Source of the DNA: Humisphaera borealis | GTDB taxonomy: Bacteria; Planctomycetota; Phycisphaerae; Tepidisphaerales; Tepidisphaeraceae | DNA length: 64,000 bases | Assembly (NCBI RefSeq): GCF_015169395.1 | Contig: NZ_CP063458.1 | Location: 6,901,954-6,965,953, forward strand | Direction: 5' to 3' | Shown here: one piece after another, positions 10,273 through 45,900 of the stretch | Layout: every line of letters starts with the position of its first letter | How positions within the stretch are numbered: position 1 is the first letter of the stretch | Notes under the pieces: model-generated | The model's input: only the letters and a program-made list of their open reading frames with translations | What the model was told of the DNA's origin: nothing | The model's database searches: none | Position numbers and translations under genes: made by a program

Positions 10273-10461
10273 CCCCTCTCCCCTGTACTCGGGGGAGAGG
10301 GCGAGGGTGAGGGGCCGAACGTCGGGCGGCGTTGCTCGCACTTCAACGTCGTTGAGGAACCCACGACGGAGTCGCAGGGCTCTCATCAAACCGCGCGAGG
10401 AACGGGCCCTCACGTTCGGCCCCTCACCCCATCCCTCTCCCCCGAGTACAGGGGAGAGGGG
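10273..10461. repeat. family A GC-rich palindromic element (two inverted ~50-bp copies, 89-bp loop)
   Basis: CCCCTCTCCCCTGTACTCGGGGGAGAGGGCGAGGGTGAGGGGCCGAACGT at ~10273-10322 and its near-perfect reverse complement at ~10412-10461. Each arm is itself palindromic (CCCTCTCCCC/GGGGAGAGGG). Confidence 0.8.
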
Positions 10462-10462
10462 G

Positions 10463-11479
10463 TTATACCTCCACCACTGCCTTGATCACGCCCGTCTCCG
10501 GCTTGGTGTACGACTCGAACACCTCTGTCATGTCTTCGAACTTCGTCCGGTGCGTCACCCACGGCGTGGTGTCGATCTTGCCGGTTTCAATCAGCCCGAT
10601 GATCCGCGTGAAATCCGCCGGCAGCGCGTTGCGGCTGCACAGCAGCGTCCCTTCCGGGCGGTGAAAGATGGGGTGAATAAACGTCACTTCCTTGGTCGTG
10701 ATACCGACGTACACCAGCCGGCCGGTGGGGGCGATGTAGCCGAACGCGTTGGACATCGACCCGTTGTGGCCCGTTGCGTCAATAACGACATCGGGCAGCG
10801 CGCCGTCGGTCACCCGCCGCAGGTCGTCGACGACTTTGTCATTCAGCACGATCGTTTCGTCGACGCCCATCTTCTCTTTGCAGAACGCGAGGCGCTGGGC
10901 GTTGACGTCGAGCACGATCACCTTGGCCCCGGTGAGCTTGGCGAACACGATGCTCGACAGGCCGATCGGACCGGCGCCGATGACCAGGCAGTTCTCGCCG
11001 GCCGTCAACGCCGAACGGTTGACGGCGTGGCAACCGATCGCGAGCGTCTCGACGAGCGCCAGTTGTTCGAACGAGAGCTTCGTGCTGACGTGCAGCTTTC
11101 GGGCCGGCAGGACGAAGCGGTCGCGCAGGCCGCCGTCGGTCATGACGCCGAGCACCTTCAGGTTGGCGCAGCAGTTGGTCGAGCCCTTCTTGCAGGCGTG
11201 GCAGGTGCCGCAGTTCATGTAGGGTTCGACGGCGCAGCGGTCGCCGGGCTTGACGTTTGTCACGCCGCTGCCGACGGCAACGACCTCCACGCCCAGTTCG
11301 TGACCGGGGATGCGTGGGTAGCTGAAGAACGGCATCTTGCCGAGATAGCCGGAGAGGTCGGTCCCGCAGATGCCGACGCGATGGACACGCACCACCGCCT
11401 CGCCCGGCCCGGGGGCGGCGGGTTCGTCGATGTCGATGCGTTCGAAATGGCCGGGGCTCTTAAGAAGGATTGCTTTCAT
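10463..11479 (-). CDS. zinc-dependent alcohol dehydrogenase (MDR family, threonine/sorbitol dehydrogenase-like)
   Basis: GHEXXGXXXXXGXXV-type motif (PGHELGVEVVAVGSGV), structural zinc Cys cluster (CGTCHACKKGSTNCC), Rossmann GAGPIGL. Confidence 0.85.
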   Translation of the reverse strand: MKAILLKSPGHFERIDIDEPAAPGPGEAVVRVHRVGICGTDLSGYLGKMPFFSYPRIPGHELGVEVVAVGSGVTNVKPGDRCAVEPYMNCGTCHACKKGSTNCCANLKVLGVMTDGGLRDRFVLPARKLHVSTKLSFEQLALVETLAIGCHAVNRSALTAGENCLVIGAGPIGLSSIVFAKLTGAKVIVLDVNAQRLAFCKEKMGVDETIVLNDKVVDDLRRVTDGALPDVVIDATGHNGSMSNAFGYIAPTGRLVYVGITTKEVTFIHPIFHRPEGTLLCSRNALPADFTRIIGLIETGKIDTTPWVTHRTKFEDMTEVFESYTKPETGVIKAVVEV

Positions 11480-11693
11480 GGTTGGCTCGCCGAATGTGAT
11501 ACCGGCACAGCGCAGGCGTGTCCATGTCGCCTTGGCGACAAACGGGCATTGGTATTTCCAGGAAACGACACTGGAACAGCCATGCTGCGTTCGAAAGGTT
11601 CTTTCTCAACGCGACTGACAGGCGGGAATGTCCGCCTCTACGAGCGCCCCGCCTTGCCCCCGCCGCCCGGTCTTTCTAATCTCCGTGGCTCGA

Positions 11694-12500
11694 ATGAGCT
11701 TTGCCTTGGGACTAGCGATCGGAGGACTCGGCGGCCTTGCCCTGACGGGCGTGGTCGCGGTGATCGCATATCGCCGCAACGCACGCCTGCAACAGCGTGC
11801 CTTCCGCGCCGAGCGCCTGGCCGAGCTTGGCGCGCTCACTGGTGGGCTGGCCCACGAGATCAAGAACCCCCTCTCGACCGTCCAGCTGAACCTCCAACTG
11901 CTTCGCGAGGACATCACACCACAGGATGTCGGCCCGCGTGCCCACGGCCGGCTGATCCACCGGCTGACGACCGTCCAGCGCGAAACCGGCCGCCTGCGCG
12001 ACATCCTCGACGACTTCATGCGATTCGCCGGGCGGATCGAGATCGAGAAGCGGCCGGTGGACGTCCACCAGATGTTCGACGACCTGGTCGATTTCTTTGC
12101 CCCGCAGGCGCAGTTGCAGAAGGTGCAGCTTCGCGTCCGCCCGCCCGCCGGCGACGGCGAGTCCCTTGTCGTTCCGCTGGACGACCGGCTGATCAAGCAG
12201 GCCATCCTGAACCTGATGATCAACGCTTTACAGGCCATGCCCGAGCAGGGCGGCGAGATCATCCTGTCGGCCGAGCGCGAGGGGAACAAGGTAAGACTGC
12301 AGGTCACTGACACCGGCGTGGGCATTCCGCCCGAAACCATCGGCCAGATCTTTGACGTCTACTACTCCACCAAGAAGGGCGGCACCGGGCTTGGTCTGGC
12401 GATCACCAAGCGCGTCGCCGAGGAACATGGCGGAAAGGTCTACGCCACCAGCGAGGTGGGCAAGGGGTCGGTGTTCACGATTGAAGTGCCGGCGCGATAG
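11694..12500 (+). CDS. sensor histidine kinase (HisKA + HATPase_c, one TM segment)
   Basis: H-box LAHEIKNPLSTVQ. N, G1, G2 boxes (LMINALQAM, DTGVGIPPE, GGTGLGLAI). Alternative ATG start at 11628. Confidence 0.8.
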   Translation: MSFALGLAIGGLGGLALTGVVAVIAYRRNARLQQRAFRAERLAELGALTGGLAHEIKNPLSTVQLNLQLLREDITPQDVGPRAHGRLIHRLTTVQRETGRLRDILDDFMRFAGRIEIEKRPVDVHQMFDDLVDFFAPQAQLQKVQLRVRPPAGDGESLVVPLDDRLIKQAILNLMINALQAMPEQGGEIILSAEREGNKVRLQVTDTGVGIPPETIGQIFDVYYSTKKGGTGLGLAITKRVAEEHGGKVYATSEVGKGSVFTIEVPAR

Positions 12501-12562
12501 ATCGAACAGATGACTTTGAGCGAGTTGCCGCATACAAAGTAACGCTTGGAGCTGCTTTGCCG

Positions 12563-12654
12563 GGTGCCATGGGCTGACGTACTCGTCTACCCGTGGCGGC
12601 ATGCCTGCCGCTACGCACTGCTACGGGAAGCGGAGTACCGCAGCCCATGGCACC
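12563..12654. repeat. family B palindromic element (GGTGCCATGGGCTG...CAGCCCATGGCACC), copy 1
   Basis: 92-bp imperfect hairpin between the histidine-kinase and response-regulator genes. Confidence 0.8.
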
Positions 12655-12709
12655 CAGAACGCAGGGCGCACAAAATGCTTCAGGCGTTCATCGTTACTCG
12701 TTAGCACCC

Positions 12710-14095
12710 ATGTCAGACACCGAGATCATTCCGTCCACCATCCTTATCGTCGATGACGAACAGGAACACGCCCAGGTCATGTGCGAAGCCCTGCAGCGCC
12801 AGGGCCATAAGTGTGACGTCGTCTTCAGCCTGCCCGAAGCGCGGCAGAAGCTCGATCGGCGGAAGTACGACTTGGTCGTCACCGACCTGATGATGGAAGG
12901 CCGCAAAGACGGCCTGGAGGTGCTCGCGGCGGCCAAAAAGCAGACACCGCCACCGCCTGTCATCCTCGTCACAGCCCACGGCGCGGTCCGCACTTATAAA
13001 GAGGCGATGCAGCTCGGGGCATTCGATTTCATCGAAAAGCCACTCGACCTGGAAGACTTCCGGGCCCAGGTCAATCGCGCCGCGCGGCAGGCGGCGCTAC
13101 TGAAGCAGAACCAGGTGCTTCAGGAGCAGCTTTCCGAAGTCTCCGGCGAGCGTGCCGGGTTTGACGCGATCATCGGCACCAGCCAGGCGATGCAGAGCGT
13201 CATTCGCACCGCCCGGCAGGTGGCACAGAGCGATATCCCGGTGCTAATCCTTGGCGAAAGCGGCACCGGCAAGGAACTGGTCGCCAGGGCAATCCACCAG
13301 GCATCCAAACGCCGTAAGAACCGGCTTGTCATCCTGAACTGCGCCGGCTTCGCCCCGACCATTCTCGAAGACGAGCTGTTCGGCCACGTCAAAGGCGCGT
13401 TCACCGATGCCCGCACCGACCGCGAAGGCCGCTTCGAACACGCCGATGGCGGCACACTGTTTCTCGACGAAATCGGCGACATGCCCGCCGACATGCAGGC
13501 GAAGCTGCTGCGGGCGCTCGAGTACGGCGAAGTCGTGCGGCTCGGTTCGAACGACCCGATCCAGGTCGATGTACGGATCGTCAGTGCGACAAACAAGAAC
13601 CTCCTGCAGATGACGCAGGAGAAGACCTTCCGCGAGGACCTGTATTACCGCCTGAACGGCATCAGCCTGATGATCCCGCCGTTGCGCGAACGGCGGGAGG
13701 ACATACCGCTGCTGATTCACTACTTCCTGCAGCAGGCCGCCGAGCGATCGGGCCGGGAAATCGACGGGCTCGAGCCAGACGCCCAGCAGTACCTGATGAG
13801 CTACGGTTGGCCTGGCAACGTGCGCGAGTTGCGGAAGGTGATCGAACGGATGGTGGTCCTGAGCAGCGGCAACAAGCTGACGGCCGACTCGCTTCCGCCG
13901 GAAATCAAACCCGCCACCCTTACAGAGCCGATCGGCGGCATGGGCAACCTGTTCGGCATCAGCTTGGAGCAGGCGGAAGTGGAGTTGATCCGCAACACGC
14001 TCAAGCACACCAACGGCAACCGCGAACAGACGGCGAAGATCCTGGGCATCGGGGAACGGACGTTGTACCGGAAGATCAAGGATTACAACCTGTGA
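12710..14095 (+). CDS. sigma-54-dependent response regulator (NtrC family: REC + AAA+ sigma54-interaction + Fis-type HTH)
   Basis: REC domain (ILIVDDE...DLVVTDLMM), Walker A GESGTGKE, GAFTDA ESGGTLFLDEIGDM, C-terminal HTH NREQTAKILGIGERTLYRKIK. Confidence 0.9.
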   Translation: MSDTEIIPSTILIVDDEQEHAQVMCEALQRQGHKCDVVFSLPEARQKLDRRKYDLVVTDLMMEGRKDGLEVLAAAKKQTPPPPVILVTAHGAVRTYKEAMQLGAFDFIEKPLDLEDFRAQVNRAARQAALLKQNQVLQEQLSEVSGERAGFDAIIGTSQAMQSVIRTARQVAQSDIPVLILGESGTGKELVARAIHQASKRRKNRLVILNCAGFAPTILEDELFGHVKGAFTDARTDREGRFEHADGGTLFLDEIGDMPADMQAKLLRALEYGEVVRLGSNDPIQVDVRIVSATNKNLLQMTQEKTFREDLYYRLNGISLMIPPLRERREDIPLLIHYFLQQAAERSGREIDGLEPDAQQYLMSYGWPGNVRELRKVIERMVVLSSGNKLTADSLPPEIKPATLTEPIGGMGNLFGISLEQAEVELIRNTLKHTNGNREQTAKILGIGERTLYRKIKDYNL

Positions 14096-14364
14096 TGGTA
14101 AGCATGATCCCACAGTCGTGCGTCTGTGACGCTGTCCGTGACACGGGTTTCCAACCCGTGCGAGCGACGTTCGGAGTAGAGACTCTCTTGATCCTCAATC
14201 TCTTTAATCTGAGTGCGGGGAGATCACCACGGAGGTACGGAGGCACGGGGAGATTCTCTGAGAACGATTTGAGGATGAGCGAAACCTGGCGTCGTGGACA
14301 TCGCTTGCACGGGTTGGAAACCCGTGTCACGGACAGCGTTACAGATCGCGTTGCGATGGTAAGC
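14094..14364. mobile_element. MITE-like element (family E) with 10-bp direct repeats GATGGTAAGC and ~46-bp imperfect inverted repeats
   Basis: Direct repeats at 14094-14103 (includes the TGA of the response-regulator gene) and 14355-14364. Inverted repeats ~14124-14170 and ~14298-14346 with core GTGACACGGGTTTCCAACCCGTGC. No ORF inside. Confidence 0.7.
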
Positions 14365-14378
14365 GGGGAGGACTGGCG

Positions 14379-14873
14379 ATGAGTCGTCACCCCCCCCGCA
14401 TCGGTCACGGCTACGACCTCCACCGTCTGCAAGCTGGTGGGCGATTGATGCTGGCGGGCATTGAAGTCGCCCGCGATCTTTCGCCTGTCGCCCATTCCGA
14501 CGGCGATGTCGTTCTGCACGCCGTTGTCGATGCCCTTTGCGGGGCGCTCGGGCTCGGCGACATCGGCGAGCACTTTGCCAACACTGACCCGCGGTGGAAG
14601 GACGCGCCCAGCCGGGTGTTTGTCGATGAGATCTGGGGCAAGGTCACGGCGGCCGGGTATCGGCTGGGGAATGCCGATGTCACGATCCTTGCAGAAAAAC
14701 CGAAGCTCAAGGCGTTCAAGCCCGCCATGCGGCAGGCGCTGGCCGAGATGCTGGGGGCGACGGTCGAGCAGATCAATGTGAAGGCGGGAACGAACGAGGG
14801 GTGCGACGCGATCGGGCGTGGGGAGGCGATCGCGGCGCATGCGGTTGTATTGCTTTTCGAAAGGGAGTCTTGA
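14379..14873 (+). CDS. ispF: 2-C-methyl-D-erythritol 2,4-cyclodiphosphate synthase
   Basis: IGHGYDLHRL...SDGDVVLHAVVDALCGA...GDIGEHF motifs diagnostic of IspF. GGGGAGG RBS. Confidence 0.9.
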   Translation: MSRHPPRIGHGYDLHRLQAGGRLMLAGIEVARDLSPVAHSDGDVVLHAVVDALCGALGLGDIGEHFANTDPRWKDAPSRVFVDEIWGKVTAAGYRLGNADVTILAEKPKLKAFKPAMRQALAEMLGATVEQINVKAGTNEGCDAIGRGEAIAAHAVVLLFERES

Positions 14874-15079
14874 TGGAACGTGCTCGCCAGCAACCCGAGG
14901 CAGTCCAAGCGACTACGACCGGGCGTCCGTTGTCATTGGAGGAATCGCGGCAAGTCGAAACCGTGCTGATACGTGAGGCGCTCGCGCGAACGGGTGGCGA
15001 CTTTCAGCAGATGTCGAGGCTGCTTGGAATCAGTCAGAAAGTGCTGCGAGCAAAGGTTTCCGAGTTGGGTCTGTCCTGA
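14873..15079 (+). CDS. Fis-family helix-turn-helix DNA-binding protein (68 aa)
   Basis: ATG overlaps ispF stop (TGATG). GGGAG RBS. C-terminal Fis-type HTH ARTGGDFQQMSRLLGISQKVLRAKVSELGL. Confidence 0.6.
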   Translation: MERARQQPEAVQATTTGRPLSLEESRQVETVLIREALARTGGDFQQMSRLLGISQKVLRAKVSELGLS

Positions 15080-15269
15080 CCTACCTAGAAAGGGTCGTTG
15101 CTGATGCTCTTTCTGAATTGATCGGAGAACCGATCAATGTCGCGGCGTACCTCGACCATGGGTTGAAAACCCATTCCACGAAAAACGCGGCCCGTTGCCC
15201 GCTCGCCGCCATCGCGTAGACTGACGGCTTCTAGTTCAGCCTTCCGCATTCATCCTTCATCCTTTCCCT

Positions 15270-16823
15270 ATGACTCTCCGCGTCTACAACACCCTCAGCC
15301 AGCAGAAGGAACTCTTCCAGACCGTCCGACCCGGGAAGGTGGGGATGTATCTGTGCGGGCCGACGGTTTACAAGTCGCCGCACGTCGGCCACATGGTCGG
15401 GCCGGTCATCTTTGACGCGATCAAGCGTTACCTGCAGTTCAAGGGGTACGAGGTGACGTGGGTCGTCAACATCACCGACGTCGACGACAAGCTGATCGAC
15501 GCTGCCGAGCGGCTGGGCACGACCGTCAAAGACCTCGCCGACAAGCACACGGCGGAATACTTCGAATGCCTCGCGGCGCTGGGGGTGAACTCGATCGACC
15601 ACTTCCCCCGGGCGACGGGGCACATCGTGGAGATCGTCGAGCTCTGCCAGACGCTCATCAACAAAGGATTCGCCTACGCCGCCGACGGCAATGTCTGGTT
15701 CGACGTCACCAAGGACGAGGACTACGGCAAGCTCTCGCACCAGACCGCCGAGGAACAGGAAGCCGGCGGCGAGGGAGCGACCGCGGGCAAGAAAAGCGGC
15801 CGCGACTTTGCCCTGTGGAAGGCGGCCAAGCCGGGCGAAATCTCCTGGGATTCGCCGTGGGGCAAAGGGCGGCCGGGCTGGCACATCGAGTGCTCGGCGA
15901 TGGCGATGAAGATCCTCGGGCCGACGTTCGACATGCACGGCGGCGGGATGGACCTCAAGTTCCCGCACCACGAGAACGAAGTGGCCCAGTCCGAAAGCGC
16001 GACCGGTCAGCCGTTTGCGAAGTACTGGCTGCACAACGGCCTGACGAAGTTCAACACCAAGAAGATCAGCGGCAGCGACATGTTCGGCAGCGAGGAAGCC
16101 GCCAAGGCGCTGGCGGCGGTATCGGCCAAGAAGCTCGTCGGCGAGCACGGCGCGCTGGTGCTGCGTTACCTGCTCCTCAGCAGTCATTACCGCCGACCGA
16201 TCGACTTCACCGAGACGGCGATCTCAGACACGAAGAAGGCGATGGCGACGTTCACCCGGCTGTTCGAGCGGATCGACCGGTTGGTGCCGAAGCCCGCCAC
16301 GCCGCCGGCCACGCCCGCGCCCGGCAGCCATGGCCACGGCGCATCCGCCGATGACATGGATCGTGTCTCGGCGAACCTGCTGGATGGCGAGCATGCCGCG
16401 TTCGCCAAGGCGGTGCTCGGGCTGAAGATGAAGTTCCTGGAGATGATGGACGACGACTTCAACACCGCCGGCGCGATCGCGGCACTTCACGAGATGGCGG
16501 GCGAGGTCAACGCGTTTCTGGAGCAGAACGAGGCCGAGAAGACCAAACCGGCCGACGTCCTGGCCGCTGCCGCCGCGGGCGTGCAGACGCTGCGTAATCT
16601 CGGCGGCGTGCTGGGGTTGTTCCAGGAACCCGCGGCTGGGGTCGCTGCCAAGGCCGCCGATGACGGGCTGACCGGGAAGCTGATGGAGCTGTTTATCCAG
16701 CTCCGCGCCAACGCCCGCCAGACCAAGAACTTCGCCCTCGCCGACGACATCCGTAAGGGACTGACTGCGATCGGCGTTACCTTGGAGGACGGGGCGGACG
16801 GCACGCGCTGGCGGAAGGACTAG
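15270..16823 (+). CDS. cysS: cysteinyl-tRNA synthetase
   Basis: Class I HIGH motif (CGPTVYKSPHVGHMVGP), CysRS zinc-binding region and C-terminal DALR-like domain. 517 aa. Confidence 0.9.
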   Translation: MTLRVYNTLSQQKELFQTVRPGKVGMYLCGPTVYKSPHVGHMVGPVIFDAIKRYLQFKGYEVTWVVNITDVDDKLIDAAERLGTTVKDLADKHTAEYFECLAALGVNSIDHFPRATGHIVEIVELCQTLINKGFAYAADGNVWFDVTKDEDYGKLSHQTAEEQEAGGEGATAGKKSGRDFALWKAAKPGEISWDSPWGKGRPGWHIECSAMAMKILGPTFDMHGGGMDLKFPHHENEVAQSESATGQPFAKYWLHNGLTKFNTKKISGSDMFGSEEAAKALAAVSAKKLVGEHGALVLRYLLLSSHYRRPIDFTETAISDTKKAMATFTRLFERIDRLVPKPATPPATPAPGSHGHGASADDMDRVSANLLDGEHAAFAKAVLGLKMKFLEMMDDDFNTAGAIAALHEMAGEVNAFLEQNEAEKTKPADVLAAAAAGVQTLRNLGGVLGLFQEPAAGVAAKAADDGLTGKLMELFIQLRANARQTKNFALADDIRKGLTAIGVTLEDGADGTRWRKD

Positions 16824-16834
16824 GCCGGAGCAAT

Positions 16835-16949
16835 GACGAATGGCGAAGATCGAATGGCGAATGAATCCCTAAGGACCAATAAACAAAGTCGGAAACGGCT
16901 TCGTCATTGGGATTCATTCGTCATTCGCATTTCGTGACTCGTCATTGCC
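16835..16949. repeat. family D palindromic element (CGAATGGCGAATGAAT core), copy 1, immediately after cysS
   Basis: GACGAATGGCGAAGATCGAATGGCGAATGAATCCC ... GGGATTCATTCGTCATTCGCATTTCGTGACTCGTCATTGCC. Confidence 0.75.
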
Positions 16950-17045
16950 TGAGTGGCACACTCGGTCCGCCGATAAGCCTGATGCGGACTTTCTTCATCC
17001 GCCGGCGTTTCCACGTGGTGCACATCACCGCCTCGCCGGGGTAGA

Positions 17046-17411
17046 ATGGCCGTCATGGCTGATGCAACGGAGGCGAATCTCGTGTCCAACCCCCTGAATT
17101 CCTGGCTGTCGCAAGGTGAGCAGTTGTACACCTCGGCGTTGAACGAGTTTCGCGCGCTCGAGGCCCAGCTCGACGACTTGGAGCAGAAGCTGGCCGCCAA
17201 GCAGCAGGAAGTGAACCAGATCGCCGGGATTATCGGCAAGCCAACGGTTGAGGGTTCCCGCCGCCTGTCGGCATCGCATTCGCCCGTCGCCGATATCATC
17301 GACGCCCCGCACCAGGAACGCCTGCCCGTGCCGTTGCCCCACCAGGCGACTCCCAGCAACAGCTCGAACGCGACGATCGCGCGGGCGCTGACGGGGAAGT
17401 TCGGCCGGTAA
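17046..17411 (+). CDS. hypothetical coiled-coil protein
   Basis: 121-aa ORF followed by a strong terminator. Heptad-like ALEAQLDDLEQKLAAKQQEVNQIAGI. Confidence 0.45.
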   Translation: MAVMADATEANLVSNPLNSWLSQGEQLYTSALNEFRALEAQLDDLEQKLAAKQQEVNQIAGIIGKPTVEGSRRLSASHSPVADIIDAPHQERLPVPLPHQATPSNSSNATIARALTGKFGR

Positions 17412-17441
17412 CCTCGCGGCGCGCCTTGTGAAGGATCATCA

Positions 17442-17541
17442 CGCCGGTGTCTGAGCGTACTCGCGAAGACCCGGATTCTTTCTGCGGATGACGCAAAGAA
17501 TCCGGGTCTTGGCGAATACCTCAGACACCGGCGTTTTTTTG
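17442..17541 (+). terminator. rho-independent terminator (long nested hairpin + T7 run)
   Basis: CGCCGGTGTCTGAG...CTCAGACACCGGCG outer stem with inner GACCCGGATTCTTT...AAAGAATCCGGGTC hairpin, followed by TTTTTTT. Confidence 0.75.
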
Positions 17542-20425: not shown

Positions 20426-21358
20426 ATGGCACGTAACATCTTTGTCACCGGAGGCAGCGGGTTCGTGGGAACCGCCGTCGTCGATGAGCTCGTCTCGCGC
20501 GACTATTCCGTGCAGGCGCTGGTTCGCAAAGGGTCCCTCGATAGCCGAGGCGGCAAGGTGACGTCATTTGTTGGCGACCTGTTCGACCCCAAGTCACTCG
20601 CGGCCGGCATGGCCGGGTGTGATGCGGTCATTCACTTGGTCGGCATCATCATGGAGCAGCCTTCTAAGGGGGTGACGTTCGAGCGGATGCACTTCGAGGG
20701 GACCAGGTCGGTCGTCGATGCGACGAAGGCCGCCGGCATCCGGCGATACGTGCACATGTCGGCGCTGGGCGTTCGGCCGAATGCTGTGAGCGCCTACCAC
20801 AAGACCAAGTGGAAAGCCGAGGAGTACGTCCGCGGCAGCGGGCTCGACGCGACGATTCTCCGCCCCAGCATGATTCACGGTCCCAAGGGCGAGTTCATGA
20901 AGATGGAAGCCGCCTGGGCGAGGAAACAGGCGATGCCGTTCCTGTTCATGCCCTATTTCGGCAACGGCGTCCTCGGCCTTGGCGGGAGCGGCCAGTTGCA
21001 GCCGGTCTACGTTGCCGACGTCGCCCGCGCCTTCGTCGATGCACTCGATAAGCCCAACACCATCGGCCAAACCTACGAACTAGGCGGCCCCGACCGCATG
21101 GACTGGCCGACTATGCACAAGACCGTCGCCGAGATCCTGACGGGTAAGAATCGCCTGACGATGCCAATCCCGTCGTGGTACGCCAAGGTGCTCGCGACGG
21201 TGGTGCCCGGATCGCTGTTACCGTTCAACAAGGCGCAGGTGCAGATGGCCGAGGAAGACAACGTCTGCGACACAAAGCCGGCCGAAGAAGCATTCGGCTG
21301 GAAGACGCGCGGGCTGCGGGAGACGCTTTCGCAGTACAAGGGCCAGATGACGGAATGA
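20426..21358 (+). CDS. NAD(P)-binding SDR-family epimerase/dehydratase-like protein (NmrA/NDUFA9-like)
   Basis: ARNIFVTGGSGFVGTAVVDEL Rossmann motif. GAGGAG RBS 6 nt upstream of the ATG. Confidence 0.8.
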   Translation: MARNIFVTGGSGFVGTAVVDELVSRDYSVQALVRKGSLDSRGGKVTSFVGDLFDPKSLAAGMAGCDAVIHLVGIIMEQPSKGVTFERMHFEGTRSVVDATKAAGIRRYVHMSALGVRPNAVSAYHKTKWKAEEYVRGSGLDATILRPSMIHGPKGEFMKMEAAWARKQAMPFLFMPYFGNGVLGLGGSGQLQPVYVADVARAFVDALDKPNTIGQTYELGGPDRMDWPTMHKTVAEILTGKNRLTMPIPSWYAKVLATVVPGSLLPFNKAQVQMAEEDNVCDTKPAEEAFGWKTRGLRETLSQYKGQMTE

Positions 21359-21367
21359 CGAATCACT

Positions 21368-21493
21368 GAATTCGAATGGCGAATGAATGACCAATCTCGA
21401 AGCATGAAATGTCCGCCAACGTCCGCTGCAATTGGACATTGGGTCTTGGAACTTCATTCGCCATTCGATTTTCGTCATTCGTCATTCGTCATT
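21368..21493. repeat. family D palindromic element, copy 2, immediately after the epimerase gene
   Basis: GAATTCGAATGGCGAATGAATGACC ... GGAACTTCATTCGCCATTCGATTTTCGTCATTCGTCATTCGTCATT, including a 3x GTCATTC heptamer. Confidence 0.75.
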
Positions 21494-23356: not shown

Positions 23357-24820
<1,464 letters not shown>

Positions 24821-29050: not shown

Positions 29051-29123
29051 GGGACGCGAAGGAAGAAGTTGGGCCACGAATCTCACGAAGCAAAACACGA
29101 ATGAAGAGCATGGCGGTCGGCGC

Positions 29124-29300
29124 CGTCAGTGACACGGGCATCCTGCCCGTGCTGAGTGCGTGACGGTCGAGTTGTATCAATACCAATCTCTTTGCTTTGT
29201 CAGTGCATGGACTCGCAAACGGCCAAGAATCTGTTGCGCTATCCCCAACTTTTCACTCGGACGTCGCACGCACGGGCAGGATGCCCGTGTCACTAACAGA
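29124..29300. repeat. family E palindromic element, second copy
   Basis: Arms CGTCAGTGACACGGGCATCCTGCCCGTGC (~29124-29152) and GCACGGGCAGGATGCCCGTGTCACTAAC (~29270-29297) share the GTGACACGGG-N-TCC-N-CCCGTGC signature with the 14.1-kb element. Sits between convergent genes. Confidence 0.7.
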
Positions 29301-29347
29301 GTCGATCGCAATCTCTCATTCGTGCTTCGTTTCGTGAGATTCGTGGC

Positions 29348-31186: not shown

Positions 31187-31196
31187 GGCTCTGCTC

Positions 31197-31244
31197 CCTC
31201 TCCCCGGTACTCGAGGGAGAGGGCTGGGGTGAGGGGCCGTACGT
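31197..31244. repeat. family A element, third (single-arm) copy
   Basis: CCCTCTCCCCGGTACTCGAGGGAGAGGGCTGGGGTGAGGGGCCGTACGT directly upstream of the start of the 612-aa zinc-ribbon gene. The following ~20 bp also resemble the loop of the 10.3-kb copy. Confidence 0.7.
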
Positions 31245-31272
31245 CAGGCGTTGCCCCCGCTCAGTTCGTCCT

Positions 31273-31418
31273 CAACTGTCATCCTGAGGTACTCCGAAGG
31301 ACCTGGTATCCGAGCCGAGTAAGTATCGAACGTCGAAAACCGAACGTGTGCGGTTTGGGGTTCGATGGCGGTCTGCTTGGGATAGAAGGTCTTTCGGAGT
31401 ACCTCAGGATGACAACTG
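31273..31418. repeat. family F MITE-like element with 31-bp terminal inverted repeats
   Basis: CAACTGTCATCCTGAGGTACTCCGAAGGACC ... GGTCTTTCGGAGTACCTCAGGATGACAACTG flanking ~85 bp. Related outer arms surround the family C copy at 45.7 kb. Confidence 0.75.
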
Positions 31419-31433
31419 CGGTCCCCGGGTCGA

Positions 31434-32567: not shown

Positions 32568-32640
32568 GGGAGTGGGGTAAGAAGTCGGGAGTCAGAAGTC
32601 GGGAGGTTGTTCTGCCTTCGGACTTCCGACTACTGACTAC

Positions 32641-32985
32641 TTAGTTCGAAATATACACCGGCCGAATCACCTCGACAGGGGACTGGCGGATCGCTTCTTC
32701 GATCTCGGCGAGGACCCAGGCGACGCGGGAGACCGATTCGCGGTCGTCAACGCGGGCCAGGCTCACCGCTCGCACGAGCCGTTCGAGGTGTCCCTGCAGG
32801 CGATTGGCGATGCCCTGCTGGCGGGCCGTGGGAAGGGTGAGGGTCGCACCGACGCGGGCCATCCGGCCTGACAGCCGTTCAATCATCTTCTGGGCCGGTT
32901 CGTCGAGGAAGCGACCGGCGAGCATGGCCATGGCGTCCAGGCGGGTACGCTGCTGAAGGATCAGGTCGGAAATCGAACGTTCCAT
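32641..32985 (-). CDS. hypothetical small helical protein (114 aa), first gene of putative operon with SPFH gene
   Basis: Same strand, 73-bp gap to the SPFH gene. Coding-type codon bias. Confidence 0.45.
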   Translation of the reverse strand: MERSISDLILQQRTRLDAMAMLAGRFLDEPAQKMIERLSGRMARVGATLTLPTARQQGIANRLQGHLERLVRAVSLARVDDRESVSRVAWVLAEIEEAIRQSPVEVIRPVYISN

Positions 32986-33255
32986 GGTGCTAGCCTCCGT
33001 CTCTCCTGCATCGACCGATTGTGGCAGCGCCTGAGGCTGCCACGCATCGCTGATGTAACGTACTTCTCCGGTCGGTCACGCGCGGAGCCTTAAACGGGGC
33101 ATCGAGGAGTGGCGGAAACTGGCGGGAGGGCCCCTGAACCTGGAGATCGCGAGCCGCCGGGAGCCGATGCAGGCCGCTGCTCGTCAACCTGTCGGGCACT
33201 TATCGATTGATATCAATCTCAACCAAAGCTCATGCCGTGATGTATCAACGAGCAG

Positions 33256-35846
33256 ATGCGCTTCGGGTTTACCCAATTTCTGATGCTGTTGTCCCTCGGG
33301 GGAGCGTCGGCTTTCGGATCGGTCGAGCCGACAATGCCGCCGGCCGGCAAATCGCTGGAGTTCTTCGAAAACAAGATCCGCCCGGTCCTGGTCGAGCACT
33401 GCTATCAGTGTCATAGCGCCCAGTCCGAGAAACTAAAGGCCGGCCTGCACCTGGATTCGCGGGATGGCCTGATGAAGGGGGCGACTCGGGCTCGGCACTG
33501 GACCTGGCCAACCCGGACAAAAGCCTGCTCATCCGAGCGTTGCGGCACGATGACGAGATCGACCTGCGGATGCCGCCGAAGCTCAGGTTGCCGGACGTGG
33601 TCACGGCGGACTTCGTGAAGTGGGTGAAGCTGGGGGCTCCCTGGCCGGCGCAGGCGGTCGTCGCGGCGGCCCCCCGGGCCGCGTTGGACCCGGCGGCCGC
33701 CCGTAAGTCGCATTGGGCGTGGCAACCGCTCCGCAAGCCGGCTGTGCCCTCGGCCGATCCGGCCTGGGTCCGGACGCCGATCGACGCCTTTATCTTCGAT
33801 AAGCTGCAAGCCAAAGGGCTTCGGCCGTCGCCGCCGGCAGAGCGACGGACGTTGCTCCGGCGCGTCTACCTCGACCTGATCGGCCTGCCGCCTTCACCCG
33901 ACGAGGTGCAGAAGTTCCTGGCCGATTCGTCGCCGACGGCGATGGAGAAGGTCGTCGATGACCTGTTGTCGCGGCCGCAGTATGGCGAGCGGTGGGGCCG
34001 GCACTGGCTGGATATCGCCCGCTACGCCGAAAGCCAGGGCTACGAGCGGGACGAGCCCAAGCCCTTCACCTGGCGGTACCGGGACTATGTCATCCGGGCG
34101 CTCAACGAAGATAAGCCGTACGATCGATTCGTGTTCGAGCAGCTGGCAGGAGATGAGATTCCCGGGGCCGATCTCAACACGCAGGCCGCGGCGACGTTTC
34201 TTCGCCTGGGCATCTTCGACACGATCGCCGCCGACGGAAAGGTCGCCCGTTACGACCAGCTCGACGATGTCGTCGGTACGGTGACGGCGGCGTTTCTCGG
34301 GCAGAGCCTGCGGTGTGCCCGTTGCCACAATCACAAGTTCGAACCCTACTCGCAGACTGATTATTATCGCATCCTGGCGGTGTTCGATCCGCTGAGCACC
34401 GACAGGCCTCGCGAAACCCGGCTGGCCGGTTCGAAGGCGGAACTGGCCGATTACGAGAAGGCGCTCGCCGCGTTCGAACTGGAGATCGCGCCGCTTCAGG
34501 ACAAGCTTGATGCCGAGCGCGTTGCGATCCTGGAGCCGCTGGGTGCCGGCTACTACTCGGACAAGTCGAAGGAGCGAACCCCGCGCGACGAGAAGAAGCC
34601 GCGTGTCTCCCAGGAGGTGCTGTCGGCTTTCAAGACACCGCCGGCCAAACGAGACGCGACGGAGCGCGAGCTGGTCGAAAAGAACCGTCGGCGTCTGGGG
34701 GACGAGATTCGCAAACTGGCGACCGCCGATCAGCGCAAGGCCGACGAGGCGTCGCAGAAGGCGATCGACCAGTTGGAAGCGAAGAAGCCGAAGGGGCCAC
34801 AGGTTTACCTGTTCACGGAGACGGCCAAGCCGCTATCGACCAAGCTGTTCCTTCGCGGCGACCCGCACAAGATCGGCCCGACGGTCGAGGTCGGCCTGCC
34901 GCCACTCTGGGGCGGTAGTCCTCAGGCGACGCCAGCACCGGTGACCCAGGACGTTCTGACCCCATCGAGCGGCCGGCGCACCTGGCTGGCGAACTGGATG
35001 ATCACCGACGGCAAGGGCACGCTAGCCCGCGTGATCGCCAATCGCGTCTGGCAGTACCACTTCGGCCGGGGGATCGTCGCGACGAGTAATGATTTCGGTT
35101 TGGCCGGCGACAAGCCGACCCATCCGGAGCTACTGGACTGGCTCGCGGCCGACCTGATCGACGGCGGATGGAAGCTCAAGCGGCTGCACCGGCAGATCGT
35201 ATTGTCGGCGGTCTATCAGCAGTCGGCGGGCTATGCGCAGATCCCTGATGCCGACCCGGATAACGACCTGCTGTGGCGCTGGCCGACGCGTCGGCTGGAG
35301 TCCGAGGCGATTCGCGATTCGATGCTCGCCGTCAGCGGCAAGCTCAACCCCGAGATGTTCGGCCCGCCGATCTTCCCGCCGGCGGCGCAGCGTGTCGTCG
35401 GCACGTCGGCCCAGAGCGACTGGGGCAACAGCGACGATCGGGAAGCATCTCGGCGAAGCGTTTACGTCTTTCAGAAGCGATCGATCCCACTGCCGGAACT
35501 CGAGATTCTGGGTATCCCCGATTCGACGATGAGTACCGATGTTCGGCCGGTGGCGACGACCGCGCTGCAGGCACTGCTGCTGATGAACAGTCGATTCGCC
35601 AGCGAGCAGGCGGCAACCCTCGCCGAGCGGGTAGCGAAAGAAGCGGGGAACGATCCGACAGCGCAGGTGAACCGGGCGTTCGAACTGGCGATGGCCCGCC
35701 CGCCAAGGACGGAAGAGCTCGAAGCGGCGCTGGCGTATCTGGCGACGTCGGCGGAGCCGGAGATCAAGGCATCGGTGAAGCTGTCGCCGCTGGGATCGTT
35801 CTGTCTGGTGCTGCTGAACAGCAACGAGTTCTTGTACGTGAATTAG
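33256..35846 (+). CDS. PSCyt1/PSCyt2/PSD1 (DUF1549/DUF1553) planctomycete giant protein; reading frame interrupted by -1 frameshift in G5 run at ~33477-33481
   Basis: Frame 1 encodes a signal peptide plus the CxxCH PSCyt1 start ([25 protein letters not shown]...LMKG). The continuation [34 protein letters not shown] and the rest of the protein ([14 protein letters not shown]... PSD1) are in frame 0. Inserting one G restores a canonical ~863-aa protein. Confidence 0.8.
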
Positions 35847-35873
35847 TCGCTGTTTCGAAACGGCCTTCATCTG

Positions 35874-35965
35874 GGTGCCATGGGCTGGCGTACTCGCCTG
35901 CCCGTGGCGGCGACATCGCAGTCATGCGACGCCACGGGCAGCGGAGTACCGTAGCCCATGCCACC
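35874..35965. repeat. family B palindromic element, copy 2
   Basis: ~85% identical to the 12563-12654 copy. Lies between the PSD1 and DUF1501 genes and contributes an in-frame ATG to the track ORF. Confidence 0.8.
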
Positions 35966-36001
35966 CAAACTCGGTTCTTTCGCCTACGTCTGAGGAATAC
36001 A

Positions 36002-37468
36002 GTGCCCGACCCACTCAATCCCAACTTCCCCTGCGGCATCACCCGGCGGCAAGCCATCTGGCAGGCCGGTGCCGGGTTCTTCGGCACGGCGATGGCCGCG
36101 ATGCTCGCCAGGGACGGGTTCTTTCCCGCGCGTGCCATGGGCGCGTCCCTCACGCCCGCGTCGCAGCCGACCAACCTCGCCCTTGCACCGCTCGCGGCCC
36201 GTCAGCCGCACTTTGCTGCCAAGGCCAAGCGCGTCATCTTCCTCTATATGGTCGGCGGGCCTTCGCACCTTGATACCTTTGACCCCAAGCCCGAGCTCGT
36301 CAAACGCCACGGCCAGAAGCAGTCGCTGGGCAGCGACAACGAACGGGCCACCAGCCAGAAAGCCAGTGGCGAACTCAAGGGCGCACCCTGGAAGTTTCCC
36401 AAGTGCGGCAAGTCGGGTGTCGAAGTGTCGGAACTCTTCAGCCACGTCGGCAAATGCGTGGACGATATTGCCGTCGTGCGATCGATGACGGCCGACTCGG
36501 CGGCACACGGGTCGGCGTCGATCCAGATGAACACCGGGCACATACGGCCGGGCTTTCCGAGCATGGGTTCATGGGCGGCGTACGGACTGGGCACACTGAA
36601 TCAGAACATGCCGGCGTTCGTGGTGCTGGTGAATGGTGCGCCTTACTCGGGCGCGCAGAACTGGTCGGCCGGGTTCATGCCGGCCGCGTTCCAGGGGACG
36701 GTCTTCGGAGCGACCGGCGACCCGATCCTCAACCTTCGTCCGGCATCCGGCGTTTCGCCGGAACACCAGCGACGGCAGATCGATCTGCTCACGAAGCTCA
36801 ACGAAGGTCATCGCCAGGCCGAGCCCCTGAACACTGAGCTGGCGGCGCGGATCGCGAACTACGAGCTCGCGTTCCGCATGCAGGCCAACGCGCCCGAGGT
36901 GATCGACTTCGGCCAGGAATCGCCGGCAACTCTCGATCAGTACGGCATCGAAGGGGACACGAAGAAAGAAACCGAAAAGTTCGGCCGAAGCTGCCTGATG
37001 GCCCGGCGGCTTGTCGAGCGTGGCGTGCGGTTCGTGCAGATCTATCACTCGAACTGGGACACCCACGGCGACAACGACAAACGTCACCAGAAGCTTTGTG
37101 GCGAAACCGACAAACCGATCGCCGGCCTGCTGACCGATCTCAAACAGCGAGGTTTGCTCGAAGACACGCTGGTTGTCTGGGGCGGAGAGTTCGGCCGAAC
37201 GCCGGTCGGCACCGGCGGACGCGACCATCACGCCGCGGCGTTCAGCATGTGGATGGCCGGCGGCGGGGCGAAGGGTGGCCAGGCCTACGGCGTGACCGAT
37301 GATTTCGGCTTTGCTGTCGCCGAGAACCGGGTTCATGTTCACGACCTGCACGCGACCATCCTGCACCTGCTGGGCTTCGATCACGAACTGCTGACTTACT
37401 TCCACAGTGGTCGCAACTTCCGCCTGACTGATGTTAGCGGGCGGGTGGTGAAGGAACTGATCGCATAG
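36002..37468 (+). CDS. DUF1501 protein (Tat signal), downstream partner of the PSD1 gene
   Basis: GTG start 4 nt after GAGGAA RBS. Tat motif ITRRQAIWQAGAGFFGT. Conserved DUF1501 blocks (FLYMVGGPSHLDTFDPKPEL, GRDHHAAAFSMWMAGGG). Confidence 0.8.
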   Translation: MPDPLNPNFPCGITRRQAIWQAGAGFFGTAMAAMLARDGFFPARAMGASLTPASQPTNLALAPLAARQPHFAAKAKRVIFLYMVGGPSHLDTFDPKPELVKRHGQKQSLGSDNERATSQKASGELKGAPWKFPKCGKSGVEVSELFSHVGKCVDDIAVVRSMTADSAAHGSASIQMNTGHIRPGFPSMGSWAAYGLGTLNQNMPAFVVLVNGAPYSGAQNWSAGFMPAAFQGTVFGATGDPILNLRPASGVSPEHQRRQIDLLTKLNEGHRQAEPLNTELAARIANYELAFRMQANAPEVIDFGQESPATLDQYGIEGDTKKETEKFGRSCLMARRLVERGVRFVQIYHSNWDTHGDNDKRHQKLCGETDKPIAGLLTDLKQRGLLEDTLVVWGGEFGRTPVGTGGRDHHAAAFSMWMAGGGAKGGQAYGVTDDFGFAVAENRVHVHDLHATILHLLGFDHELLTYFHSGRNFRLTDVSGRVVKELIA

Positions 37469-39416: not shown

Positions 39417-39445
39417 CGAATAGATCATTCCGGTTTCAAGCGGTC

Positions 39446-40810: not shown

Positions 40811-40858
40811 GGCTCGCAGTCCCGTCTCTGATCCGGAGGTGTGGTTCAAGGGGAGAGG

Positions 40859-41776: not shown

Positions 41777-41885
41777 GGTTGATAGACCTTTCGTTTGAGC
41801 CCGCGATTCTACGGGGCGGCGGGGGGCTGTCTACGAAGGGCGGCAAAGGATCACGAAGATCCCCGACCTGTCAGGAGAACCTTTC

Positions 41886-42009
41886 AAGGAGCCGCGCACG
41901 AAGTGTACTCACGGAGAAAGCGGGAACTGTGACGTTCCGTGGTCCATTCCGACGTTTCGGGGTCCATTCCCGCTTACTCCGTGAGTACACTTCGTGCGCG
42001 GCTCCTCAG
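41886..42009. repeat. family C palindromic element (AGGAGCCGCGCACGAAGTGTACTCACGGAGAAAGCGGGAA arms), copy 1
   Basis: ~40-bp inverted arms with ~45-bp loop that contains a GGTCCATTCC direct repeat. Confidence 0.8.
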
Positions 42010-42063
42010 AAGGTCGTACTTCCGATCAAACACTTCGTGCTCCTTCGTAAACTGCCTCCTACA

Positions 42064-43251: not shown

Positions 43252-43259
43252 CGAGGCTG

Positions 43260-44092: not shown

Positions 44093-44893
44093 ATGCTGTC
44101 TCGTATAAGCGAAAAGATACCACCGTCAGCCGGCCTGCCGGTTCGTGTCGCCGCACTCCAACACATATTCCCCAACGGCGTCGAAGCCATCCGCCGGGTT
44201 GATCTCGCGATCGCCGCCGGCGAGTTTGTCGCCATCCTCGGTCCGTCCGGGTGCGGCAAGTCCACGTTGCTCCGCGTGATCGCCGGGCTGGAGCGCCAGA
44301 CCGGTGGCGATGTCTCCGTCGGCTCGGCGGATGACGCGGGCCGTAGCGATATCGCGTTCGTCTTCCAGGATGCCCATCTGCTGCCCTGGCGGACGGTGCT
44401 CGCCAACGCGGCCTTGCCGCTGGAACTGCGCGGCGTTCCAGTGGAGCAGCGGACCTCCGCCGCGATCGCGGCACTGGCATCGGTCGGGCTGGCGGGGTTT
44501 GAAGATCGATATCCGGCCCAACTGTCCGGCGGAATGAAGATGCGGGTTTCCATCGCCCGTGCCTTGGTCACACGCCCGCGGCTGCTGCTGATGGATGAGC
44601 CGTTCGCCGCCCTCGACGAGATCACCCGGCAGAAGCTCGATGACCTGCTACGAAAGCTGTGGGCCGACACCGGCATGACGGTGCTTTTCGTCACCCACTC
44701 GACGGAAGAGGCAACCTACCTGGCCAGCCGTGCGGTCGTGATGAGCCGCCGGCCGGGGCGCATTGTGCTCGACCACGCGATCGACCTGCCCGCCGTTCGG
44801 TCGGCCGATCTTCGCGGCGATGTCGCGTTTGCTCGCCATGCCCGCGCGATCTACTCGGCGCTGGAACGTGGGCAGATGACGGAGGTCGCGTGA
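44093..44893 (+). CDS. ABC transporter ATP-binding protein (NitT/TauT family, SsuB/TauB-like)
   Basis: Walker A GPSGCGKST, signature LSGGMKMRVSIARAL, Walker B LLLMDEPFAALD. Confidence 0.9.
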   Translation: MLSRISEKIPPSAGLPVRVAALQHIFPNGVEAIRRVDLAIAAGEFVAILGPSGCGKSTLLRVIAGLERQTGGDVSVGSADDAGRSDIAFVFQDAHLLPWRTVLANAALPLELRGVPVEQRTSAAIAALASVGLAGFEDRYPAQLSGGMKMRVSIARALVTRPRLLLMDEPFAALDEITRQKLDDLLRKLWADTGMTVLFVTHSTEEATYLASRAVVMSRRPGRIVLDHAIDLPAVRSADLRGDVAFARHARAIYSALERGQMTEVA

Positions 44894-45708
44894 AGCCGAG
44901 CGAACCGATCGAGCATCAGTCCACGGCGACGCAGGAGCGCAGCCGATGGCGGACTGCCGTCGCGAGTTTCCTTCCGCCCGTGTTGCCGTTGGTGGTTGTG
45001 CTCGCGTCGATCGAGGCGGCGGTGCAGTTCGGGCTGATCGCGCCTTACATCATTCCGCCGCCGTCGCGAATTTTCGCTTCGATCCGCGACGACCGTGTCG
45101 AGCTGTTCTCGGCGATGCTCAATACATCGATCGCTTCGCTCGTCGGATTCGTGCTCAGTATGGTCATCGGGGTCGTGCTGGCGGTCGTCCTCGCTTCGTC
45201 GGCGTGGATTCAACGGGCGTTCTACCCTTATGCGATCTTCTTCCAGACGGTGCCGATCGTCGCGATCGCGCCGCTGCTGGTCATCTGGTTCGGCTACGGC
45301 ATGCCGACGGCGGTCGCGTCGGCGTTTATCGTGTCGGTGTTCCCCGTGATCGCCAACGCGCTGGCGGGTTTGCTCTCGACCGACCCGGCGCTGCGCGACC
45401 TGTTCCGCCTGTACGGCGCGACACCGACCGCCACGCTGCTCAAGCTTCGTCTGCCCGGCGCGCTGCCGAACATCCTGACCGGCCTGCGGATCGCCGGCGG
45501 ATTGGCGGTGATCGGCGCGATCGTGGGCGAGTTTATTGGCGGCAACGGCAGCCTGGGTGACGTCATCACGTCGGCCCTCACGCAGCAGAAGAACGCCAAG
45601 GTCTTCGCCGCCGTGCTGCTGGCGTCGCTGCTGGGGTTGGCGTTGTTCGGGCTGATCAACCTGGTGAGCCGACTAGCGCTGCGGCACTGGCATGCGTCGG
45701 AGCGGTGA
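44890..45708 (+). CDS. ABC transporter permease (NitT/TauT family, binding-protein-dependent inner membrane component)
   Basis: GTG start overlaps the ATPase stop (GTGA). Six TM segments with EAA-like loop (LRLYGATPTATLLKLRLP). Confidence 0.8.
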   Translation: MKPSEPIEHQSTATQERSRWRTAVASFLPPVLPLVVVLASIEAAVQFGLIAPYIIPPPSRIFASIRDDRVELFSAMLNTSIASLVGFVLSMVIGVVLAVVLASSAWIQRAFYPYAIFFQTVPIVAIAPLLVIWFGYGMPTAVASAFIVSVFPVIANALAGLLSTDPALRDLFRLYGATPTATLLKLRLPGALPNILTGLRIAGGLAVIGAIVGEFIGGNGSLGDVITSALTQQKNAKVFAAVLLASLLGLALFGLINLVSRLALRHWHASER

Positions 45709-45715
45709 TCATTCG

Positions 45716-45900
45716 TCAACTGTCATCCTTTGGAGCACTTCAGAGCGTGTGACTTCTTGAGGAGCCGCGCACGGAGTGCACTCACGGAGTAAGCGGGAAT
45801 GACCCCGAACCGTCACGGTTCCCGCTTGCTGTCACGGTTCCCGCTTACTCCGTGAGTGCACTCCGTGCGCGGCTCCTCAAAGTCACGTACCCTCAGGATG
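45716..45900. repeat. family C palindromic element, copy 2, nested inside family-F-like outer arms
   Basis: Core ~45757-45880 has arms ~90% identical to copy 1. Outer CAACTGTCATCCT...CCTCAGGATGGG arms resemble family F termini. Confidence 0.75.

Follow-up and report, generated by a model that had tools for sequence, protein, structure and literature searches.

The 64,000-nt stretch of the Humisphaera borealis chromosome analysed here (hereafter, the window) contains 18 long palindromic elements, all of them intergenic. The elements of this bacterium (Planctomycetota, Phycisphaerae, Tepidisphaerales) are probably a mixed population of extragenic palindromes of the REP (repetitive extragenic palindrome) and REPIN type, that is, non-autonomous DNA moved in trans by a REP-associated tyrosine transposase (RAYT) encoded elsewhere in the genome. 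To our knowledge, REP/REPIN-RAYT systems have been studied almost exclusively in Gammaproteobacteria. The basic unit would be a stem-loop of about 25-45 nt with a conserved foot, and the copied element would consist of two such units inverted around a short spacer. The RAYT, an HUH-Y1 enzyme, would cleave and rejoin the single-stranded elements in trans, as established for such systems (PMC3116915, PMC3337134, PMC6006769), and copies would persist only at sites that tolerate insertion, namely between genes and for the most part just past the 3' ends of genes.

A preliminary description of this DNA had listed six families of inverted repeats, A to F, together with further long hairpins. Repeat searches and self-BLAST recovered all of these at or near the places given, and three elements that had been missed: a degenerate copy of family B (B', 3917-4006) and the hairpins at 17441-17541 and 49261-49300. 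The full set is as follows; a strand is given where one was assigned, and all other elements are unstranded.

3917-4006: B', degenerate family B doublet between convergent genes; its inner stems form the canonical heterodimer (AAGCG-TACT type and AACGG type)
10263-10471: A1, family A doublet filling the gap from an ADH stop to an AP_endonuc_2 start; two inverted units CCCCTCTCCCC-TGTACTCG-GGGGAGAGGG plus G-rich tail, tails inward, spacer 55 nt
12552-12664: B1, family B REPIN between a histidine kinase gene (stop 12500) and a sigma-54 response regulator gene (start 12710); arm GGGTGC-CATGGGC-stem-TACT-stem'-CCCGTGG
14123-14345: E1, family E doublet; core hairpin of each arm GTGA-CACGGG-TTTCCAA-CCCGTG-C, spacer 127 nt
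16830-16948: D1, family D palindrome of repeated GAATGNCGAAT motifs, downstream of cysS
17441-17541, plus strand: 17.4 kb long hairpin between convergent genes; GCG-TACT-CGC apex on one arm, then T7; folds at -76 kcal/mol
21347-21492: D2, family D palindrome overlapping the final codons of an epimerase gene
28015-28099: 28.0 kb GTAGGG-tagged REP doublet between rbsD/fucU and an aldo-keto reductase gene; GTAGGG-TCCGCC-TT-GGCGGA-C, spacer 43 nt, inverted copy
29070-29350: E2, family E doublet; core GTGA-CACGGG-CATCCTG-CCCGTG-C, enclosed by outer arms of CACGAAN motifs (29070-29104 and 29316-29350)
31195-31250, plus strand: A2, solo unit of family A; identity with the A1 arms 89-91%
31270-31421: family F doublet; arms CAACTGTCATCCTGAGG-TACT-CCGAAGGACCTGG
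35870-35967: B2, family B REPIN between a PSCyt2/PSD1 gene (stop 35846) and a DUF1501 gene
41879-42020: C1, family C palindrome in a divergent promoter region
45749-45886: C2, family C palindrome; 43-nt arms, 100% complementary, -115 kcal/mol
49261-49300, plus strand: ordinary hairpin of the intrinsic-terminator type with T-run, directly 3' of tRNA-Asp (49184-49257)
53494-53594: second GTAGGG-tagged REP doublet, between an FAA-hydrolase stop and the likely trpF start; GTAGGG-GCATAC.. and ..GTGTGC-CCCTAC, arm stems different and each self-complementary
54334-54409: palindrome GGGGAACGCCGAGCTCC.., downstream of trpF
56833-56920: palindrome GTTAGCCGCGACGCGCAGCGGAGCG.., with a 25-nt arm core

The excess of palindromes is real. 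Self-BLAST gave 14 local inverted-repeat matches at E<=1e-3, compared with 0 in each of 20 dinucleotide-preserving shuffles. The elements amount to 3.3% of the window and roughly a quarter of its intergenic bases, and their intergenic placement, first described for almost all of them, holds throughout: on the gene map of this analysis, intergenic DNA makes up 14% of the window and contains every element. As RNA, they have folding energies from -54 to -115 kcal/mol (z-scores between -7 and -15), and each arm can fold by itself in A, B, and E, in the doublet at 28.0 kb, and in the hairpin at 17.4 kb. Elements occupy 17 of about 46 gaps (16 of the 45 listed, and the gap that holds the 53.5 kb doublet). 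Occupancy is 15/35 for gaps with a gene 3' end, as against 1/10 for divergent gaps that hold promoters only. On reading the sequences, a T-run was found on two hairpins only (17441-17541 and 49261-49300) and not on the other 16; these two are predicted intrinsic terminators, the one at 17.4 kb being terminator-like. No element matched Rfam 15 at the gathering score, where tRNA-Asp was the sole match in the window.

Family B provides the link to a transposase. Its arm has the consensus GGGTG(G/C)-CATGGGC-xxxxG-TACT-Cx'x'x'x'-GCCCGTGG, followed by a spacer of 14-26 nt and an inverted copy that ends in CCACCC. As had been noted before, its copies separate the histidine kinase from the sigma-54 regulator (B1) and PSD1 from DUF1501 (B2). 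A 21-base pattern of the B arm matched 86 metagenome stretches, among them 8 contigs from the single assembly JAESGR. For 58 of the 85 arms selected by pattern there is an inverted partner, and GAGTAC occurs in 46 of the 58 partner arms, which the pattern had not selected. Spacers measure 14-26 nt in 39 doublets. The inner stems of the 145 B arms come in 38 different versions; all five positions self-pair in 94 arms, and four of the five in 47. Among the 16 doublets with perfect self-pairing, out of 39 doublets in all, none has the same inner stem on both arms; typically, AAGC/GCTT is combined with AACG/CGTT. The inner stem covaries within an arm and differs between arms, and it is thus the hairpin within each arm that is conserved, by selection or by the copying process, and not a long hairpin between the arms.

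Which enzyme might move these repeats? B doublets or arms adjoin or bracket RAYT genes in five loci of other assemblies (L171, L206, L212, L214, and L215). In L171, an open reading frame (ORF) for a Y1 transposase (HSH ... YLHNNP) ends 20 nt from three B arms; it was found by phmmer with an Escherichia coli RayT sequence, and then with a hidden Markov model built from the alignment. The protein has 2041 homologues of about 190 aa, named 'putative transposase' or 'REP-associated tyrosine transposase' in the databases; the named members come from metagenome-assembled genomes (MAGs) of Planctomycetota and Phycisphaerae. In L212, L214, and L215, which were fetched with their flanks, B-type arms in inverted orientation stand on both sides of each RAYT gene. 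In L206, the RAYT gene starts 36 nt downstream of a canonical B doublet with TACT loops, and its stop is followed closely by a B arm. The RAYT proteins next to B arms pass the NCBIfam model NF047646 ('REP-associated tyrosine transposase') with 89-93 bits at a cutoff of 80. Across 14 aligned RAYTs, the HUH motif is found in 13 and Y-x-H-x-N-P in all 14; the closest PDB match is E. coli TnpA-REP (4ER8), although this match is weak (E 0.017). Judged by these sequences, family B is a REPIN, and other Planctomycetota assemblies encode its putative cognate RAYT clade.

The RAYT genes beside B REPINs include two that are disrupted (L206 2058-2626 and L171 684-1193), with a frameshift in one and an in-frame stop in the other; this could be decay or sequencing error. 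A second type of RAYT, with REP doublets of its own on its flanks, was found in L108, a Planctomycetia MAG.

The preliminary description had treated the six families as unrelated, which does not fit their anatomy. B and E have in common the foot GTG(G/C/A) and the basal stem CAYGGG/CCCGTG. The E consensus, GTG(A/G)-CACGGG-7 nt-CCCGTG-C, has a short loop in place of the inner hairpin of B, and the 24-nt core hairpin is the only part that E1 and E2 share. The hairpins at 28.0 and 53.5 kb, described earlier as single-copy, do exist but belong to a known format. Both carry GTAG(GG) feet, at 28015 and 53494, with the reverse complement at their far ends; the feet of B (GTGG/GTGC) and E (GTGA/GTGG) are variants. 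Given the GTAGGG tags and the differing, self-complementary stems, the two are GTAG REP doublets in the format of PMC3733652. The inverted-doublet form is common to B1, B2, B', both E copies, and the two GTAGGG-tagged elements. A mobilisation of B and E by RAYT is most likely, because the architecture GGGTG(G/C)-CAYGGG(C)-variable inner hairpin-(G)CCCGTG flanks RAYT genes in other Planctomycetota and Phycisphaerae. By analogy, a RAYT would act on the H. borealis copies as well, and the elements may affect transcript 3' ends as proteobacterial REPs do, perhaps in the role of mRNA stabilisers or terminators that the preliminary description proposed. Families A, F, and C can be regarded, by the same analogy, as hairpin repeats of a REP-like kind.

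A further shared feature is the apex. The hexamer GTACTC/GAGTAC occurs 32 times in the window, and 13 of these lie within the 3.3% occupied by elements, where about one is expected. GTACTC forms the arm apex in A, B, C1, F, and the 17.4 kb hairpin. A strict search for a TACT tetraloop on a perfect stem of >=5 bp failed in the window; the hexamer, or a stem with one mismatch, is the robust statistic. The G-TACT-C apex is also present in other Planctomycetota, on B-like stems, on two more unrelated stems, and on one GTAG-tagged REP. This has led to a tentative proposal, which we consider rather doubtful at present: an undescribed REP super-family may be defined by its loop and not by its foot, with one conserved factor (a Y1 enzyme, a host protein, or an RNase) that reads the TACT/AGTA apex, and with family A either spread between phyla or maintained by the host. 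Should the shared TACT apex and the cross-phylum A unit indeed reflect a common recognition factor, they would offer a straightforward way to test how hairpin substrates are chosen by Y1 enzymes or host proteins.

The C-like element of L048 (4566-4660, in a Planctomycetota MAG) carries on one arm an extra 11-nt mini-hairpin, GCG-TACT-CGC, that the other arm lacks, and the 15-mer AGCGTACTCGCGAAG of this locus matches the apex of the hairpin at 17.4 kb exactly. The comparison hints that the TACT mini-hairpin may behave as a module.

Do the elements turn over between relatives? Locus L122, from a relative whose cysS gene is 84% identical, is syntenic with the window from 9.4 to 29 kb. At the site of A1 it has a 92-aa ORF instead, at the site of B1 a unique spacer, and its spacer between the regulator and ispF measures 92 nt without E1, compared with 284 nt with E1 in the window. 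The absence of A1, B1, and E1 from the orthologous spacers of L122 indicates that the elements turn over. Downstream of rbsD, L122 has a single GTAGGGTCCGCCTTGGCGGACCCTAC palindrome where the window has a doublet, in the same place and with the same sequence. In a second relative, L124, whose cysS is 79% identical, the site of E1 is taken by another GTAG-REP doublet; this GTAG-REP family is present in three copies within 20 kb, beside A-like, D-like, and other palindromes. The window had been called exceptional for the density of its repeats. The excess stands, but it is not special to this segment: the other 20 kb of H. borealis covered here (L125) have about one element per 5 kb, and 20 kb of L124 contain eight palindromic elements, whereas L122 contains almost none. 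Such differences among relatives make density a variable trait of the lineage and no peculiarity of the window.

Several other families recur far outside H. borealis. A scan of genome contigs for the core of family A found it in at least 120 stretches. A single Gemmataceae MAG accounts for at least 32 of them and Humisphaera sp. SMAG_U5824 for 9; the matches listed also include Isosphaera, Phycisphaerales, Tepidisphaeraceae, and 13 stretches from assemblies named Burkholderiales or 'proteobacterium'. The A arms of the window are 90-97% identical to copies from other classes and phyla. The conserved unit is CCCCTCTCCCC-TGTACTCG-GGGGAGAGGGG, nnn, GGGGTGAGGGGG, with a sharp 5' edge, often arranged as inverted doublets with the G-tails inward. 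Only PSCyt/PSD1 and DUF1501 genes are found repeatedly beside A; these are the commonest planctomycete families and suggest no candidate mobiliser. Phages hardly carry family A: among 2.9 million viral contigs, it is present in 1. Towards its 3' end, the A unit (GGGGAGAGGG-nnn-GGGTGAGGGG) contains four runs of G separated by loops of 1-3 nt, a canonical G-quadruplex motif (window 10291-10316 and 10418-10443, loci L002-L121; tail GGGGAGAGGGGNNGGGGGTGAGGGGG). Hairpin and quadruplex would compete, as the motif overlaps one strand of the hairpin.

Family F is present in Humisphaera sp. SMAG_U5824 at nine loci, with six complete doublets. The stem reads ATGCT..AGCAT there and ATCCT..AGGAT in H. borealis, with the apex GAGG-TACT-CCGA kept, which indicates a compensatory change. 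Among other Planctomycetota, 8 loci contain the 25-nt arm core of the 56.8 kb palindrome, at identities of up to 100%, and the 54.3 kb palindrome has one related copy, in metagenome contig L195. A, E, and F recur at non-orthologous sites of other genomes; together with the 86 stretches that carry the B REPIN and the empty sites in L122, this agrees with the mobile, REP-like character suggested in the preliminary description. A nested composite of C and F, also proposed there, rests on two F-like remnants of 13 and 14 nt around C2 (45718-45730 and 45884-45905).

A distinctive style of palindrome recurs in the lineage, in which a motif of 6-8 nt is repeated three to four times and then inverted (GAGACNNA, GGATTTT, GAATGNCGAAT, CACGAAN). 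Examples are found at window positions 16830-16948 and 29070-29104, and in L124 at 3850-3932, 7834-7922, 15577-15668, and 6258-6305. Gene callers place spurious small ORFs on such palindromes, for example a 38-aa ORF at L124 15554-15670.

Several observations weigh against a REP/REPIN population moved in trans. As the preliminary description had stated, the window encodes no transposase, by Pfam on about 50 ORFs and by RAYT and IS200 profiles in all six frames; neither a RAYT nor any other transposase was found in the extra 20 kb of H. borealis. H. borealis is not among the best 120 of the 2041 RAYT homologues. The B copies in the window are 76-79% alike and may be old relics. Across 0.88 Mb with 127 A arms, no arm has a Y1 gene as its neighbour. 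Family C has one distant relative in all the data (L048), and D has none apart from a low-complexity look-alike. Beyond the window, the only family copy seen in the extra 20 kb is a single F arm (L125 18998-19045); the 64 + 20 kb of H. borealis together contain 3 copies of B, 2 of E, 2 loci of A, and 2-3 loci of F. Finally, E1 is bordered by a 10-nt direct repeat, GATGGTAAGC, at 14094-14103 and 14355-14364, which would suit a different, DDE-type mechanism.

Could the elements, then, be classical miniature inverted-repeat transposable elements (MITEs), that is, deleted derivatives of insertion sequences with a DDE transposase that move by cut-and-paste through their terminal inverted repeats? 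Their inverted-repeat build, their length of 90-280 bp, and the direct repeat around E1 would fit, and GGGGAGAG of family A matches the terminal-inverted-repeat motif GGGGWSAS (PMC3733652). However, flanking duplications of more than 6 nt are absent from the other 14 of the 15 elements: their longest flank matches are 4-6 nt, as for random pairs, and a match of 10 nt is itself reached by ~1% of random flank pairs. A general lack of target-site duplications is expected under Y1 transposition and fits the action of RAYT on single strands. Moreover, the arms of B are hairpins maintained by covariation, and the identity between arms is not kept; solo arms occur (A2, and F in L125); 1.4 Mb of loci showed no insertion sequence with matching ends, and the window no transposase; and B is tied to a Y1 and not to a DDE transposase. 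We consider an origin as MITEs quite unlikely.

An alternative without mobility holds that the elements are structural signals evolved by the host, such as Rho-independent-like terminators, RNase barriers, or protein-binding cruciforms, which have been selected in place and resemble each other by convergence. The great stability of the hairpins is consistent with this, as are the bias to gaps with a gene 3' end, the T-runs at 17.4 and 49.3 kb, and the presence of the palindrome downstream of rbsD at the same site in L122. Selection in place does not readily explain units of 45-90 nt with >90% identity at unrelated loci and in unrelated genomes, their absence from the orthologous spacers of the relative with 84% cysS identity, the lack of a T-run in most elements, or the RAYT genes flanked by B arms; this alternative is unlikely. 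An artefact of assembling or sequencing hairpin-prone DNA is effectively refuted. A short-read contig from the same organism (L001, Logan SRR12905382, equal to window 14310-17469) does break inside repeats: one end lies 36 nt into the right arm of E1, the other 29 nt into the left arm of the hairpin at 17.4 kb. The same contig, however, matches D1 and all flanks with 100% identity over 3160 nt, and the same families are found in dozens of independent assemblies. The breaks may mean that further copies of these repeats exist in the genome.

Two other kinds of element were considered and rejected. Integron attC sites are not indicated: Pfam scans of the window ORFs found no integrase, and the GTTRRRY core was not noticed in the elements read. 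Nor are the elements CRISPR arrays, as there are no regularly spaced direct repeats. For both kinds, the neighbours speak against them, being syntenic housekeeping genes.

The surroundings of the elements are those of an ordinary chromosomal segment by Pfam. The genes include rpsA, der, ispF, cysS (cysteine-tRNA ligase, 15270-16823), hemC, trpF, a histidine kinase with its sigma-54 regulator, transporters, three DUF1501 genes, and one PSCyt2/PSD1 gene. The cysteine-tRNA ligase has 100% identity with that of H. borealis. The G+C content is 60-69% across 2-kb windows. Two of the DUF1501 genes (23371-24655 and 36206-37454, on opposite strands, 67-77% identical in DNA) are paralogues and not elements; the repeat finder listed them as the long 'inverted repeats' I1-I6. 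Another paralogous pair of ~950 aa, with Big_5, GSDH-like, and CARDB domains (49582-52461 and 59483-62293, DNA identity 66-80%), has internal arrays at 51574-51656 and 61253-61513 with periods of 12/24/36/60 nt that look like a coding tandem repeat. A 14-nt tandem repeat, CTGGTCATTTGTCA, is present in 3.6 copies at 7549-7598, in the divergent promoter region between a CBS-domain gene and der. The biggest intergenic gap (32568-33539, 972 nt, divergent, upstream of PSCyt2/PSD1) contains no palindromic element and no ORF with a Pfam match.

What do these repeats mean for the genome? In this Phycisphaerae genome, about a quarter of the intergenic DNA consists of hairpin repeats in several coexisting families, and the covariation of family B reveals a constrained structure. 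The repeats explain the fragmentation of short-read assemblies, and also small, spurious 'hypothetical proteins' called on the repeats themselves; their translations yield motifs such as PLSPEYRGEG and TGWKPV. For Phycisphaerae, the searchable literature contained no account of repeats of this type, and no paper dealt with their sequences or translated products; a survey of Phycisphaerae genomics does not mention them.

The closest known counterparts of family B are the REPIN-RAYT systems of Pseudomonas and Enterobacteria (PMC3116915, PMC3337134). In both, two REP-like hairpins are inverted around a spacer (14-26 nt in B), the elements are extragenic, lack target duplications, and are dispersed in many copies (for B, within one assembly), and a RAYT gene (NF047646 for B) is flanked by the same REPs. 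Family B differs in its hosts, which are Phycisphaerae and other Planctomycetota, and in its foot, which in B and E is GTGG, GTGC, or GTGA instead of GTAG. The REP of B is also a long composite stem with a covarying inner hairpin and a TACT cap, and its two arms are systematically different.

Repeats of this kind are not new to the phylum. The planctomycete Rhodopirellula baltica has REP families and many Y1 transposases with flanking repeats (PMC3733652), and Y1 classes have been described in Planctomycetes (PMC6006769). The GTAG REP super-family of Di Nocera et al. (2013, PMC3733652) includes GTAG-20/21 of R. baltica, and the same study reported GTGG-footed repeats in Opitutus terrae. The 28.0 and 53.5 kb doublets resemble that super-family in having GTAG termini on the outside, variable self-complementary stems, and a dimeric arrangement; several REP families per genome and a preference for gaps between unidirectional or convergent genes are further points of likeness (PMC3733652). 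The likeness described here is one of format, and an identity with GTAG-20/21 is conjectural; the Phycisphaerae lie outside the genomes of that study.

Family A invites comparison with the terminal inverted repeats associated with TIRYT genes (Y1 subclass 2.1, GGGG[AT][CG]A[CG]; PMC3733652, PMC6006769). Its stem GGGGAGAG fits this motif, and A is likewise found singly and as inverted doublets, and in several phyla, including Betaproteobacteria. In contrast to them, A has no adjoining TIRYT or Y1 gene in 0.88 Mb, and its sharply bounded hairpin with a G-rich tail has not been described for these repeats. Class 3 TnpA-Y1 systems of Planctomycetes and Acidobacteria (PMC6006769) share with the present case the phylum and the combination of high-copy hairpins with a Y1 enzyme. 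There the enzymes have a Y-x4-Q motif and the hairpins are atypical with a CnGA foot, whereas the RAYTs beside family B match NF047646 and have Y-x-H-x-N-P, the class 2 type, and no CnGA foot was seen. The bacterial MITEs Correia/NEMIS, ERIC, and Nezha are similarly small, palindromic, and intergenic, and may form terminator-like structures; unlike these, the elements of H. borealis have neither target-site duplications nor a parental insertion sequence that could be found, and their arms are autonomous hairpins.

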